In this document: positions 1 through 3,392 of the stretch, piece by piece | Layout of the letters: each line of letters begins with the position of its first letter | Numbering within the stretch: position 1 is the first letter of the stretch | IMG/VR virus record: IMGVR_UViG_3300045988_053235 | Location: 1-42,798 of that record | Source: a virus | Reading direction: 5' to 3' (one strand) | Length of the DNA stretch: 42,798 bases | Program-made: the position numbers and the translations under genes | The notes under the pieces: model-generated | Seen by the model: only the letters and a program-made list of their open reading frames with translations | Databases searched by the model: none | What the model was told of the DNA's origin: nothing

Positions 1-141
1 CGCAGTTGCGTTTTCGATGGAACGCCGTGGACGTGCTATCTGTGCGAGAGCTGTCAGAAAGCGTCTTCTGAGTTAGGATGGCAAGACGAGTATGGATTTG
101 GGGACTTGCGCGAACGTTCGCTCGAGATTGAGAGGGAGGCA
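1..141. repeat. Terminal direct repeat, copy 1 (identical to 42658..42798)
   Basis: Exact match by eye between the first 141 bases and the last 141 bases. Confidence 0.95.
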
Positions 142-165
142 TTCCATGCTGGCAATCACGATTAA
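1..165 (+). CDS. 3' part of junction-spanning zinc-ribbon protein (continuation of 42565..42798)
   Basis: Frame 1 is open from base 1 to TAA 163-165. It is in frame with ATG 42565 through the repeat. Contains CxxC motifs (GCFGC, CYLCESC). Confidence 0.7.
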   Translation, partial: RSCVFDGTPWTCYLCESCQKASSELGWQDEYGFGDLRERSLEIEREAFHAGNHD

Positions 166-310
166 AGCCAACGTCCCCGCCGCTGATGCGCAGGGCATCA
201 AGGAGCGCATCGCCATGGACATTGAGCAATACGGCGACTGCAAGGTCGTGAGTATCGTGAGCGACAGAGGACGAGAAGAACAGCTACGAATGAAAGGAGC
301 CAAATTATGA
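146..310 (+). CDS. Small hypothetical protein (54 aa)
   Basis: ATG 146 is preceded by GAGGGAGG. The ORF-track start at 92 lies inside the upstream gene. Confidence 0.5.
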   Translation: MLAITIKANVPAADAQGIKERIAMDIEQYGDCKVVSIVSDRGREEQLRMKGAKL

Positions 311-780
311 GCATCAACATCAAGAAGTACACCAAAGACCAGATGGCGAAGATGGTGGAGGAAGCCGCCGAAAGGCTCAAATCGCAGAAAAAAGAAAATG
401 AAGAGCTGGCTGAACAACTGAAATCCCAAACGGCAAAAACGATTGCGCTGCGAAATGATTTGATGGCAAAGATGCATTCGAATGTCGCTTTGACCGAGCA
501 TCTTGAGCAGATGAACGGCGAGGCCATCAACAAGGCAAACGAGATCGCAAGCCTGAAAGCGGACGCGGATGCACTGCGAAATAAGCTCGCTGATACCGAG
601 GCGGCGCTTGGGCGGGCGAATGGTGAGTGCGCTTTTAAGCAAGAGACCATTAATGTAATGCGGGACAGGCGATACAACGCCGAGCAGCGCGCCAATTACG
701 CAGAATCTCACCCGTGGCGAAACCTGTGGGCGTGGGTCAAAAGAAAGCTCGGTGGTGAGAGGAATGAGCACGTTTCCTGA
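307..780 (+). CDS. Coiled-coil protein, unknown function
   Basis: ATGA overlap with the upstream stop. Heptad-like, K/E/A/L-rich sequence. Confidence 0.6.
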   Translation: MSINIKKYTKDQMAKMVEEAAERLKSQKKENEELAEQLKSQTAKTIALRNDLMAKMHSNVALTEHLEQMNGEAINKANEIASLKADADALRNKLADTEAALGRANGECAFKQETINVMRDRRYNAEQRANYAESHPWRNLWAWVKRKLGGERNEHVS

Positions 781-982
781 CCGGCTGCGCAGATTGCGCG
801 AACGCCATCAGCTAAAGCGCTGCGTGCTGTCCGAGCTGTGCGGGCTGAATCGCAACACCATCAAGCGGTATGAGATGGGGACGCAGAAACCGTCAATGGA
901 CGCGCTGATAAGCATTGCTGACTATTTTGGCGTGTCTATTGATTATTTGCTCGGGCGGTCGGACTACCCAAAAAGTTTATAA
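764..982 (+). CDS. XRE-family helix-turn-helix regulator
   Basis: ATG 764 follows GGTGAGAGG. Sequence RLRRLRERHQLKRCVLSELCGLNRNTIKRYEMG...LISIADYFGVSIDYLLGR is a classic HTH_3 pattern. Confidence 0.8.
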   Translation: MSTFPDRLRRLRERHQLKRCVLSELCGLNRNTIKRYEMGTQKPSMDALISIADYFGVSIDYLLGRSDYPKSL

Positions 983-1747
983 AAATATTTTGCAAAACTC
1001 ACTTATAAGTGAGTCAGGGCATTGCAATTATGGGAGAATTGAGCCGCAGAGGTGTAAAAGCCTTTGCGGTTCTCTCATTTATGGCGTCCACCTCCTGCGC
1101 CATAGCGGGGCGCGGTGCTTTTCATCTTTTCGCACCGCCCCCGCGATCTGCCGCACGCACAATGCAGCCCATGATCAGGGCCGAGAGGTCGCCCCCTCCC
1201 ATGCGGCACAGGACCCCGCGCACCTCTCAACGATGTGGCCCAGCGGGGACATATGCGGCATAGGTGCCCCGTAAGGGGAGACCACAGCGAGTGACGGGGA
1301 CTTTCCCTGAAGCGCTAAAGCAGGGCAGGACTGCAATGCCGTACCAGATGTATGCTACCGCATTGCGGCACGGAAGGGTAAGACCGCTACAAGGGGCTTG
1401 CATGTGCGCTGTACGAAAGCGGCATGCCGAAGAATATTTATTGGGCTGGCACCGGCTTGTGTAAAAGAAACGGATGCGACCGACGTACCGGCGCAGGGCT
1501 GAAAAGTTCCGTGGTTATCCGGCGGTGCTGTCTTTGCGAGGAGGCTGAGGCGGCAAATGGATGAGGTGCGGTGACGGCAATCGAGAGATTAGGCCGTTGT
1601 GTAGGCCGGGCCGAACAGAGCGCAGCGCCGGAGACTGTGTGAGTATCACGCCCCTTGCGGGCATAGAGTAGCCCTTCGGGGTGGGTAAAGTCTGCTATGT
1701 AAGGCCAAGGGGTGGGGGCCGGTAGCAAAACGAAAGGGAGTGAGCGT
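983..1747 (+). ncRNA. 765-nt ORF-free, hairpin-dense leader; candidate large structured RNA upstream of terS
   Basis: Only junk-composition ORFs are present. Many stable hairpins occur, including cUUCGg (1672-1681), CCCC-GUAA-GGGG (1267-1278), and long helices at 1034-1074 and 1107-1141. No internal T-run terminator. Confidence 0.45.
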
Positions 1748-2161
1748 ATGGCTGGCGGAGCGCCAAGAAAATGGAAAAGCGTAAGCGCGATGCAGAAAGC
1801 TATTGACGTTTACTTCAAAAAGTGCGAAGGCGAACCGTTTATCGGAGATGACGGCTGCGCTGTGTGCGATAAGTACGGCATGCCGATTATCATCAATGCA
1901 AAGCCCCCGACAATCACTGGGCTTGCATTGGCGCTTGGATTCACAGGGAGACAAGCGCTGCTGGACTATCAAGCAAGGCCTGAGTTTGCGGACACGGTTA
2001 CGCGCGCGAAGTCCCGCTGCGAGGAATATGCCGAATCCCGTCTGTACGATAAGGACGGTGCCAATGGGGCGAAATTCTCCCTTGGCTGCAATTTTGGGTG
2101 GCGTGAAGTGAACGAGACAAAAATAAGCACGGATTCCGTCAAGGTGGTTATTGATGTCTGA
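1748..2161 (+). CDS. terS: Terminase small subunit
   Basis: RBS GGGAG, then ATG 1748. Sequence PPTITGLALALGFTGRQALLDYQ...FGWRE is typical of Terminase_2-type small subunits. Lies directly upstream of terL. Confidence 0.85.
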   Translation: MAGGAPRKWKSVSAMQKAIDVYFKKCEGEPFIGDDGCAVCDKYGMPIIINAKPPTITGLALALGFTGRQALLDYQARPEFADTVTRAKSRCEEYAESRLYDKDGANGAKFSLGCNFGWREVNETKISTDSVKVVIDV

Positions 2162-3392
2162 TATTCTATTGTCAGAAAAAATCGGCTCGGCTTTTTACGA
2201 TGTGGCTCACGATGTGTTCCATCATGGGCACACGCATTACGATTTCAGCGGCGGGCGCGGCTCATTAAAGTCGTCCACGGTGTCTGTACTCGTCCCCCTT
2301 CTGCTGATAAATAATCCGGGTACGCACGCGCTTGTGCTGCGCAAGGTAGCAAACACGATCCGCGATAGCGTTTATGCACAGTATATCTGGGCAATCGGCG
2401 AGTTGGGCATGGCGGCGTATTGGGAAGCCAAGGTTTCCCCGATGGAGCTGATCTACAAGCCGACAGGACAGAAGATCATGTTTCGCGGCGCTGATGACCC
2501 GATGAAGATCAAGTCTATCAAAGTCCCATTTGGCTATATCGCCGTGACGCACTTTGAAGAAAAAGATCAGTTTGCCGGACGGGCGGAAATCCGAAACATT
2601 TTGCAGTCGACCATGCGCGGTGGCTCGAAGTATTGGAACTTCGAGAGCTATAACCCGCCTATCTCGCGTGACAACTGGGCGAACAAGGACAGTTTGGAGG
2701 AACGCACCGACCGCTTTTGCCACAAGTCAACGTATCTTGAAGCACCGCCAGAGTGGCTGGGAGAACAGTTTTTAGCGGAGGCGGAACATCTCAAGGCCAC
2801 GGACGAGCGCGCGTATCAGCACGAATACCTCGGCATTCCGGTCGGAACGGGCGGCAATGTGTTTGACAAGCTGGAACTGCGGGGGATTACCGATGAAGAA
2901 GTCAAAAGTTTTGACCGAATCTATCAGGGGGTGGACTTCGGATGGTTCCCAGACCCGTTAGCTTTTATCCGGCTACATTACGACAAGGCAAGGGAAACGA
3001 TTTACCTGCTTGACGAGATATACCAGAATAAGCTTTCGAACGAGCAGAGCGCGACTATAATCAAACAGCGCGGATATGGCAATGTGCGCGTCATCTGTGA
3101 CAGCGCGGAGCCAAAGAGCGTGGCTGACCTACGGGCAATGGGATTGCCTGCGTATGAGGCGGTCAAGGGACCCGGCTCGGTCGAATACGGTATGAAGTTC
3201 TTGCAGAGAAGAACGATTGTCATTGATAGAAAACGGACGCCACATGCCTACGATGAGTTCGTGGGATACGAATATGAGAGAAACAAAGACGGCGACATTA
3301 TTAGCGGCTACCCTGACGCGAACAACCACCTGATTGACGCGACGAGGTATGCGTTAGAGCCTGTCAGCCGCAGAATGGGAGTTATTGCATGA
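2154..3392 (+). CDS. terL: Terminase large subunit (PBSX/Terminase_3-like)
   Basis: About 410 aa with ATPase N-terminal and nuclease C-terminal regions (ICDSAEPKS...DANNHLIDATRYAL). RBS AAGGTGG precedes ATG 2154. Confidence 0.93.
   Translation: MSDILLSEKIGSAFYDVAHDVFHHGHTHYDFSGGRGSLKSSTVSVLVPLLLINNPGTHALVLRKVANTIRDSVYAQYIWAIGELGMAAYWEAKVSPMELIYKPTGQKIMFRGADDPMKIKSIKVPFGYIAVTHFEEKDQFAGRAEIRNILQSTMRGGSKYWNFESYNPPISRDNWANKDSLEERTDRFCHKSTYLEAPPEWLGEQFLAEAEHLKATDERAYQHEYLGIPVGTGGNVFDKLELRGITDEEVKSFDRIYQGVDFGWFPDPLAFIRLHYDKARETIYLLDEIYQNKLSNEQSATIIKQRGYGNVRVICDSAEPKSVADLRAMGLPAYEAVKGPGSVEYGMKFLQRRTIVIDRKRTPHAYDEFVGYEYERNKDGDIISGYPDANNHLIDATRYALEPVSRRMGVIA

Follow-up and report, generated by a model that had tools for sequence, protein, structure and literature searches.

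Stable RNAs other than tRNAs are known from phage tRNA gene clusters. That of the virulent coliphage T4 contains 'species 1 and 2' (rnaC and rnaD), two stable non-tRNA RNAs of ~120-140 nt which share a transcript with the tRNAs and are excised from it by the tRNA-processing machinery. Two further phage RNAs, GOLLD and ROOL, were recently shown to form RNA-only cages. Both are found near tRNA islands in phages, and GOLLD (RF01998) combines a conserved 3' region with a variable 5' region and sometimes contains embedded tRNAs (PMC12286853, PMC5737381). Here we describe a comparable region in IMG/VR virus record IMGVR_UViG_3300045988_053235, the full 42,798 nucleotides of which are referred to as the window. 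The region of interest is the gap at positions 983-1747 between a regulator gene and the terminase gene terS. It is a same-strand chain of separately conserved RNA modules that recombine between related phages. One of them, a structured RNA of ~300 nt (positions 1347-1648), represents a well-supported and apparently uncatalogued family. We consider it likely that the late packaging operon of a temperate phage of the Oscillospiraceae type begins with the gap as its untranslated head, and that tRNA-type punctuation within this co-oriented array frees the 300-nt RNA, which would act in trans.

In a preliminary description the gap had been singled out as by far the longest in the genome and interpreted as a plus-strand structured RNA, with the ORFs (open reading frames) inside it regarded as spurious. 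These points stood: a crude ORF tiling showed the gap to be the longest non-coding stretch in the window (all others measure at most ~320 nt), its ORFs are without a Pfam match and are not taken as genes, and it does encode structured RNA on the plus strand. Abandoned were the further proposals that it forms a single RNA of 765 nt, might belong with ROOL or GOLLD and may contain the pac site.

The modular composition became apparent from homologous loci. When phage records were searched with blastn, three unannotated human-gut contigs ('Bacteriophage sp.') were matched. The first (L001; MT835513) is ~83-85% identical to window positions 1-1731 in two pieces (1-749 and 761-1731), carries a different terS/terL beyond the match, and has a tRNA-Gly in place of positions ~1256-1346. 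The other two have only 1365-1516 (L002) and only 1251-1346 (L003) in common with the window, and in both the match lies between tRNA genes. Among the loci fetched, coverage of the window by homologous segments changes stepwise, from 5-7 loci at 983-1250 to ~30 at 1250-1380, 64-95 at 1380-1516 (up to 95 at 1460-1516), ~30 at 1520-1740 and 11 in terS; it is from these steps that the gap is recognized as a series of modules that can be separated. L004 has segment 1028-1144 on its own, and segment 1145-1211 likewise recurs separately, in L047, L015 and L018.

A single large ornate RNA of the ROOL/GOLLD class spanning all 765 nt would suit the location in a phage beside tRNA-type genes, the layout of GOLLD, likewise conserved at the 3' and variable at the 5' end with occasional embedded tRNAs (PMC12286853), and the wealth of real hairpins in the region. 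It is nevertheless very unlikely, given that at least five segments recur independently of each other in other phages and that the conserved unit measures ~300 nt and in many loci has a tRNA at either end; moreover, the ROOL, GOLLD and HEARO models gave no match even at E<=10 in the window and 17 related loci. What remains of the suggested resemblance to ROOL and GOLLD is thus the setting, phage tRNA islands, and not membership. Region-wide hairpin density, which had been offered in support of one RNA, was weak by energy and not strand-specific (fold of the whole 765 nt: z = -1.8 on the plus and -2.3 on the minus strand), and whole-region thermodynamics was dropped as evidence. The individual hairpins listed earlier are all present. 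Two of them, at 1034-1074 (z = -7.6) and 1107-1141 (z = -5.5), stand out by exceptional stability; that at 1267-1278 is an arm of a tRNA-like cloverleaf, that at 1574-1597 covaries strongly within the 300-nt RNA, and those at 1650-1662 and 1672-1681 are parts of conserved 3' modules.

Members of the 300-nt RNA family were collected by scanning IMG/VR with the 17-mer GCTGAAAASTKCCGTGG, which yielded at least 120 matches; the member counts given here rest on the matches listed. At least 101 of these loci carry the full core context, that is AACGGAUGCGACCGAYRYACCGGCGCAGGGCUGAAAAGUUCCGUGG followed by a variable arm and GAGGCG. The listed members form 27 clusters at 90% identity. In a scan of one genome per species, true members were present only in metagenome-assembled genomes of Oscillospiraceae, Oscillibacter, Clostridiales and Eubacteriales. 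Matches that are not members represent unrelated coding sequence or chance; one such coding sequence (…GAYGGTCGTTGGAGT GCTGAAAAGTTCCGTGG…) contains the scan 17-mer and gave false positives in L030, L033, L040, L043, L061, L067 and ~10 more IMG/VR loci. Variant-biased scans of IMG/VR and a metagenome collection returned three core variants only and did not reach distant relatives.

The position of the RNA relative to tRNA genes is nearly constant. Its 5' boundary falls directly after the CCA of the upstream tRNA, and its 3' boundary is marked by an (A/C)(C/U)UGUG box located 7-15 nt before the downstream tRNA where one is present. A tRNA-type gene ends exactly at the 5' end of the RNA in 70 of the 96 evaluable members listed (56 tRNAs with a T-loop and 14 tRNA-like elements), and in most of the other 26 a tRNA is apparent by eye. 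Further, a tRNA starts 135-225 nt past the motif in 20 of the 96. In many loci a tRNA lies on each side of the RNA, and the nearest ORF is hundreds of bases away.

A covariance model of the core and the 3' domain (R1; 177 positions, 49 pairs, two branch points) matched 25 of 25 representatives end to end with 52-218 bits. In the resulting alignment 94.1% of the cells are paired, compared with 75.5% in shuffles and 37-45% when partners were slid, and both sides have changed in 31 of the 49 pairs. The covariation score was 0.479 versus 0.153, and none of 500 shuffles reached any of five measures. As this alignment is fitted to the model, an alignment-free test of the arms of the long helix closing the 3' domain matters: cognate arms paired with a mean of -33.3 kcal/mol and non-cognate arms with -19.7 ± 7.6 kcal/mol, and in divergent subfamilies the cognate arm was better than every non-cognate arm by 10-17 kcal/mol. 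RNAalifold applied to a plain MAFFT alignment of 22 representatives predicted 38 pairs, 19 of them with compensatory changes; the long helix was missed because MAFFT shifts its arms between subfamilies. Covariation in homologous phages, which the preliminary description had proposed as a check, thus turned out strongly positive for 1347-1648.

The center of the RNA is a three-helix element, termed Y-core, with a GAAA tetraloop at 1501-1504, which is invariant in almost all members. Its rare variants are compensated (ACGGC/GCCGU in L032; inner CCG/CGG changed to CAG/CUG in L132), and its pair 10-28, a G-C in most members, is replaced by A-U in L025 and L132 and by C-G in L032. An A-rich linker separates the Y-core from hairpin 1444-1457 of the variable 5' domain, in which hairpin 1365-1387 shows a G-C to A-U compensation between two domain types. 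In the 3' domain, the apex of the long helix carries, in addition to the GAGGCG box, an optional variable hairpin, a GGAUGYGG box, hairpin 1572-1599 (helix 9) and a GUAGG box. Helix 9 is 98.4% paired, with both sides changed in 6 of 11 pairs. The possibility was considered that UUCCGUG of the core forms a pseudoknot with CACGGAA, a loop of the 5' domain; this pairing competes with helix ACGGA/UCCGU, the one compensated in L032, and is absent from other 5'-domain types.

The plus strand had been chosen in the preliminary description on account of its UUCG and GNRA loops. The choice was right, and the evidence for it is not tetraloop identity: the loop at 1672-1681 is not kept as UNCG but varies (CUCG, GUUA, AUCG, UUUG, GCAU). 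Instead, G·U cells outnumber A·C cells by 134 to 17 in the helices of the 300-nt RNA, and pairing would drop from 94.1% to 84.2% on the opposite strand. This asymmetry indicates selection at the RNA level. In addition, all 60 tRNAs called by ARAGORN within ±400 nt of the RNA in the members listed are on the same strand (60/60), and the minimum free energy (MFE) of the RNA is -111 kcal/mol on the plus and -79 kcal/mol on the minus strand. The existence of the family, the secondary structure and strand of its RNA, and the near-constant place directly 3' of a tRNA or tRNA-like gene are shown by the data.

The same data bear on two explanations that require no functional RNA. The modules might be selfish or neutral DNA, i.e. 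spacers and decayed tRNA-array remnants spread by recombination, as would fit their mosaic distribution, the loss of every canonical tRNA from the window, the degenerate appearance of several tRNAs of the arrays and the close relationship of most members. It is hard to see, however, why such DNA would keep a ~45-nt core invariant while flanking helices change sequence and still pair, show the described excess of G·U over A·C, or be retained in phages that lack tRNAs; we regard this explanation as decidedly improbable. A decayed or unrecognized protein-coding gene, for example an HNH endonuclease, could account for the gap ORFs of 66-119 aa. It can practically be dismissed on the grounds that Pfam gave no match, homologous phages have tRNAs or other RNA modules and no gene at this place, and substitutions are paired rather than codon-patterned and accompanied by loop-length indels.

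Known RNA families were searched with the 4227 covariance models of Rfam 15. At gathering thresholds, applied to the whole window and 11 loci, no family was detected in the window. Searches at E<=10 covered the gap and six further loci (17 related loci with both thresholds together); on positions 800-1900 they gave six chance-level matches only, none of them to ROOL, GOLLD or HEARO. The related loci contained only tRNAs, the hammerhead ribozymes of L025 and chance-level matches. None of the models, those of HEARO, tmRNA, RNase P RNA, group I and II introns and T-box included, thus matched the RNA of the gap above chance level. By eye, the core GCUGAAAAGUUCCGUGG had been likened to part of the specificity domain of Escherichia coli RNase P RNA and CCGAGG/UGUAGG to tmRNA (transfer-messenger RNA); both likenesses were dropped as the respective models did not match. 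A published description of the family was not found in the searchable literature, and neither was a closer precedent. The core sequence string was absent from full texts and from the first 200 of the 408 files of one candidate-RNA paper.

Compared with GOLLD, an RNA of phages and also of prophages, the 300-nt RNA occupies the same setting and likewise joins variable 5'-domain types to an invariant core and 3' domain, a likeness of layout only. GOLLD usually exceeds 800 nt, its model RF01998 had no match at E<=10, and cage self-assembly has been shown for GOLLD whereas it is a possibility for the 300-nt RNA. ROOL (RF03087) is similarly a large structured RNA of phages and prophages from Bacillota and rumen or gut habitats, often near tRNAs. 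The 300-nt RNA has half its size and a simpler architecture, and RF03087 did not match at the gathering threshold or at E<=10.

A different inter-tRNA element of ~290 nt is present in L003 (4097-4387) and also in L011, L024, L036 and L079. The same tRNA-like module precedes it, and a similar 17-mer, GCUGAAAACUGCCGUGG, occurs within it. With 3.7 bits against model R1 it was rejected as a member of the family; it may represent either another class of RNA or a very remote relative. An extra conserved non-tRNA module (…UCUUCGGUCAUGCGCGGCCGAGCACUCUAUCGCAACCACAUGGGUAUUGCGGCGGACCCAGGG…) fills ~160 nt between tRNA-Gly and the 300-nt RNA in L009-type loci (L019, L028, L031, L051, L057, L095, L098, L099 and L108).

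In the window the place directly 5' of the 300-nt RNA is taken by the tRNA-like cloverleaf (1255-1346). Like a tRNA, it folds into a cloverleaf with a 7-bp acceptor-like stem (GCGGCAU/AUGCCGU), an NCCA end (ACCA) and a third arm with a 7-nt loop. It differs from a tRNA in that this loop (GGCAGGA) does not follow the T-loop consensus, the D-loop lacks GG, and the elongated 'anticodon' arm has no 7-nt anticodon loop. ARAGORN made no tRNA or tmRNA call in 1200-1400 in its standard, intron, low-threshold and tmRNA modes, nor did the Rfam tRNA model (RF00005) call one at 1255-1346. The MFE fold has a z of -2.9 on the plus and -0.2 on the minus strand. Across ~28 loci the first pair is G·U, A-U or G-C, and in the most diverged copy (L081) the arms are compensated.

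In sister phages this slot holds a genuine tRNA, as with the tRNA-Gly of L001 at the same position. Twelve slot tRNAs share one acceptor/D/T body (GCAGACG...CGUCUGCACCA) and have widely divergent anticodon arms; in six of them the anticodon stem is disrupted and ARAGORN rejected them. Given this combination of a shared body and divergent anticodon arms, we infer that the slot conserves the part recognized by tRNA-processing enzymes, and not necessarily decoding ability, as the pattern suggests. The arms shared by the twelve are GCAGACGUAGCUCAG...CCGUCUGCACCA, and their anticodons are Gly-CCC, Cys, Met, Thr and Ile-AAU (examples are L001 4272-4353 and the slot elements of L013, L035, L054, L080, L122 and others). 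The arrays also hold unusually long tRNAs of 82-93 nt, such as a 93-nt tRNA-Ala-CGC (L003 4388-4480, L017, L059, L104), A34 anticodons (Ile-AAU, Ser-AGA, His-AUG) and several 'tRNA-???' calls with two-base anticodons. Such long or odd-anticodon tRNAs may be non-canonical or decoy tRNAs.

At its 3' side the array invariably closes with the leader element (1668-1730), after which comes the first late ORF. Hairpin 1 of the element reads GCCC-YUCG-GGGY; hairpin 2 consists of an outer stem CUGCUAU/GGUAGC, which covaries (CUGUUAC/GGUGAC), an inner stem GGCC/GGCY and a purine-rich loop AAGGGGYGGG. A ribosome-binding site and the first ORF follow 8-30 nt past the element. This ORF is one of at least six different ones, among them terS of the GP3_package and of the Terminase_2 type, a ParB-N6/N4 methylase, a small unknown protein and a Tad2-like anti-Thoeris protein. 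The latter, in L066, has 150 aa and resembles Thoeris anti-defence 2; the ParB-N6/N4 DNA methylase is the first ORF in L012-type loci. The junction between RNA array and packaging genes looks like a hotspot of anti-defence or accessory genes.

These findings also bear on the idea that the 300-nt element is itself a leader that regulates terS or the late operon in cis, by attenuation, antitermination or control of translation, and does not act in trans. In the window it does lie within the 5' untranslated region of terS, the adjoining leader element always directly precedes the first ORF, and two strong terminator-like hairpins are located upstream. However, the downstream genes are mutually unrelated, and in many loci the RNA sits between two tRNAs far from any ORF, which makes such a role unlikely. 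A pac or cos site, or another DNA-level packaging signal, would suit the location of the gap immediately 5' of terS, and the perfect palindrome at 998-1013 might be seen as a further hint. The same modules, however, precede two terS families, the methylase and other genes, so that they do not co-vary with the terminase, and compensatory changes with G·U pairs point to RNA and not DNA; this proposal is highly improbable. The pac site and the terS-specific leader of the preliminary description were therefore given up: the modules travel with at least six first genes, and the 300-nt RNA is often placed between tRNAs far from ORFs. Independence of the terminase type, frequent location between tRNAs and paired substitutions together disfavor the pac-site, terS-leader and decayed-gene readings alike.

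Under the favored reading of an RNA array at the head of the late operon, the array would be transcribed along with that operon. The tRNA or the cloverleaf at 1255-1346 would serve as 'punctuation' at which RNase P and 3'-end tRNA-processing enzymes cut, freeing the 300-nt RNA as a discrete stable molecule, for which T4 rnaC and rnaD provide a functional analogy, with no relation in sequence expected. The freed RNA would then act in trans via its invariant core, either by engaging a conserved partner from host or phage or through self-assembly, as has been suggested for GOLLD and ROOL; its role is probably accessory or in counter-defence, tied to translation or tRNA biology. Element 1668-1730 would most likely be the cis-acting leader of whichever gene opens the late operon.

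Several observations weigh against this interpretation. No tRNA that could define the 3' end of this copy is located downstream of the 300-nt RNA in the window. The family has a narrow distribution with mostly close relatives, and recent common descent may account for some of the invariance of the core. The alignment behind the covariation values was fitted to the model; the alignment-free test and the RNAalifold result obtained with MAFFT compensate for this in part. Taken alone, the RNA is not more stable than shuffles (z = -0.5), and a helix joining its 5' end and 3' tail was unsupported, with -4.3 kcal/mol for cognate and -4.5 kcal/mol for non-cognate partners. The family may be present, unnamed, among the 10,006 candidate viral RNAs of a catalogue compiled automatically from IMG/VR (PMC10690425). 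Finally, transcription, processing, stability and trans action of the array are all inferred.

A further-reaching proposal, put forward tentatively and with slightly less than even confidence, is that 1347-1648 founds a third class of large phage tRNA-island RNA whose Y-core has a specific job (binding of a partner related to translation or tRNA, self-assembly or catalysis), and that the array is an RNA-based counter-defence island. If this were true, the island at the head of the late operon would include an orphan hairpin resembling the abiF antitoxin and tRNA look-alikes with free-running anticodon arms. With the 300-nt RNA, the setting of GOLLD and ROOL contains a third, smaller and unrelated RNA. 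Its natural variants number over 100, its invariant core is compact and its helices are clear, and at ~300 nt it is more tractable for asking why phages put structured RNAs among tRNAs. The case shows association with tRNA genes to be a design of general occurrence, in which tRNA-type elements would punctuate processing, and no peculiarity of GOLLD and ROOL. In annotating phages of gut Clostridia, long 'empty' leaders 5' of terS should be read as RNA gene arrays.

The hairpin mentioned, at 1211-1251, is conserved in 12 loci in three fully compensated versions of its stem with an unchanged loop, CCUCUCAACGAUG. It is always located 4-6 nt 5' of the first tRNA or tRNA-like gene, and the sequences upstream of it are unrelated (further copies: L001 4228-4268, L015 ~3296-3336, L084 ~575-615 and eight more loci). 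The abiF motif RNA (RF03085) is an experimentally shown RNA antitoxin of AbiF/Abi_2 toxins; abiF motifs lie upstream of the Abi_2/AbiF toxin gene, usually in tandem (PMC12373285). Hairpin 1211-1251 has the same size, a G/C-rich 6-bp stem and a 13-nt loop identical to the RF03085 consensus at 13 of 13 positions. It differs in being a single copy, where RCd22 has two, and in preceding tRNA-type genes and not a toxin gene; a non-exhaustive scan found no Abi_2 domain or gene adjacent to it or among the 29 window ORFs scanned. The RF03085 match was below threshold (17 bits, gathering 37; E 6.6) and dropped out of the list in the larger search. The hairpin is therefore best called abiF-like, membership in the family not being established. 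By analogy it may be a phage-borne antitoxin decoy, which suggests that some phages may carry antitoxin RNA look-alikes disarming AbiF-type abortive-infection toxins.

Coordinates of all features are compiled in Table 1.

Table 1. Features of the gap and its borders, by position in the window
Feature	Position	Strand	Remarks
XRE-type helix-turn-helix (HTH) regulator gene	752..982	+	Pfam HTH_3/HTH_31, E 2e-11; left edge of the gap
Perfect 16-bp palindrome CTCACTTATAAGTGAG	998..1013	.	Read from the sequence; 16 nt past the stop of the HTH gene
Very stable hairpin, 17 pairs and U-rich tail, terminator-like	1034..1083	+	z = -7.6; 0/200 shuffles equal its fold
Second very stable hairpin GGGGCGCGGUGC / GCACCGCCCC	1105..1144	+	z = -5.5; inverted repeat I7
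Small hairpin G(A/G)GAGG-UCGCN-CCUC(U/C)C	1183..1200	+	Compensatory A-U to G-C change, L001 vs L084
abiF-motif-like hairpin, invariant loop CCUCUCAACGAUG, covarying 6-bp stem	1211..1251	+	12 loci
92-nt tRNA-like cloverleaf, three arms, encoded ACCA 3' end	1255..1346	+	MFE fold; conserved in ~28 loci
~300-nt structured RNA	1347..1648	+	At least 101 members; covariance model, covariation, arm test, G·U excess
Variable 5' domain	1347-1466	+	At least three 5'-domain types
5'-domain hairpin, stem GCGG/CCGC (CGCAG/CUGCG in other type), loop with conserved G(S)GUAAG	1365..1387	+	
5'-domain hairpin GCAUG-U-GCGC ... GCG-G-CAUGC	1400..1427	+	RNAalifold columns 91-101/109-120, compensatory changes
Small conserved hairpin GGCUG-GCAC-CGGCU	1444..1457	+	RNAalifold columns 140-153; closing pair GU/AU/GC
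Invariant Y-core ACGGA [UGCG·CCG-loop-CGG·CGCA] GG [GCU-GAAA-AGU] UCCGU	1470..1512	+	Three-helix, ~45 nt
Long irregular helix closing the 3' domain	1513-1546 with 1604-1636	+	
GAGGCG box, apex of long helix	1547..1552	+	Nearly invariant in A4/A5; unpaired in the model
3'-domain internal hairpin (ACGGC/GCCGU), GAGA loop in window	1572..1599	+	Helix 9
3' box CUGUG	1635-1639	+	
Short hairpin GCCC(C)-UUGC-GGGC, between 300-nt RNA and leader element	1650..1662	+	Variant stem (ACGCCC...GGGCG) in related loci
Leader element, two hairpins, ~65 nt	1668..1730	+	33 distinct homologues
terS	1748..2161	+	Pfam GP3_package, E 2e-19; ATG 1748; right edge of the gap

The terS gene is preceded by a ribosome-binding site, GGGAG, at 1736-1740 and followed by genes for TerL and an SPP1-type portal. 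In its remaining part the window looks like the genome of a temperate phage of siphovirus type, encoding an integrase, YqaJ/RecT and a DnaC-like loader. Near the left edge of the gap, the palindrome CTCACTTATAAGTGAG is identical in L001 and, judged by its sequence, is probably an operator-type protein-binding DNA site. A scan of the plus strand of the gap for sigma-70 promoters found none.

A terminator scan listed two terminator-like sites, 1041-1072 and 1095-1115, a count no higher than in shuffles. The earlier statement that the gap has no T-run terminator is thus doubtful, though the scan gives no more than shuffles do. As an intrinsic terminator, hairpin 1034-1083 is listed by the scan but has a weak tail (UCUCAUUUAU); its stability is far above chance. 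The role of the hairpins at 1034-1144 would most likely be to end or gate transcription that arrives from the upstream regulatory operon, ahead of the late operon.

Finally, the minus strand of L025, a contig that also holds a divergent member of the 300-nt RNA family, carries three type II hammerhead ribozymes (299-395, 1159-1227 and 1380-1448) within 1.2 kb, all above the Rfam gathering score.

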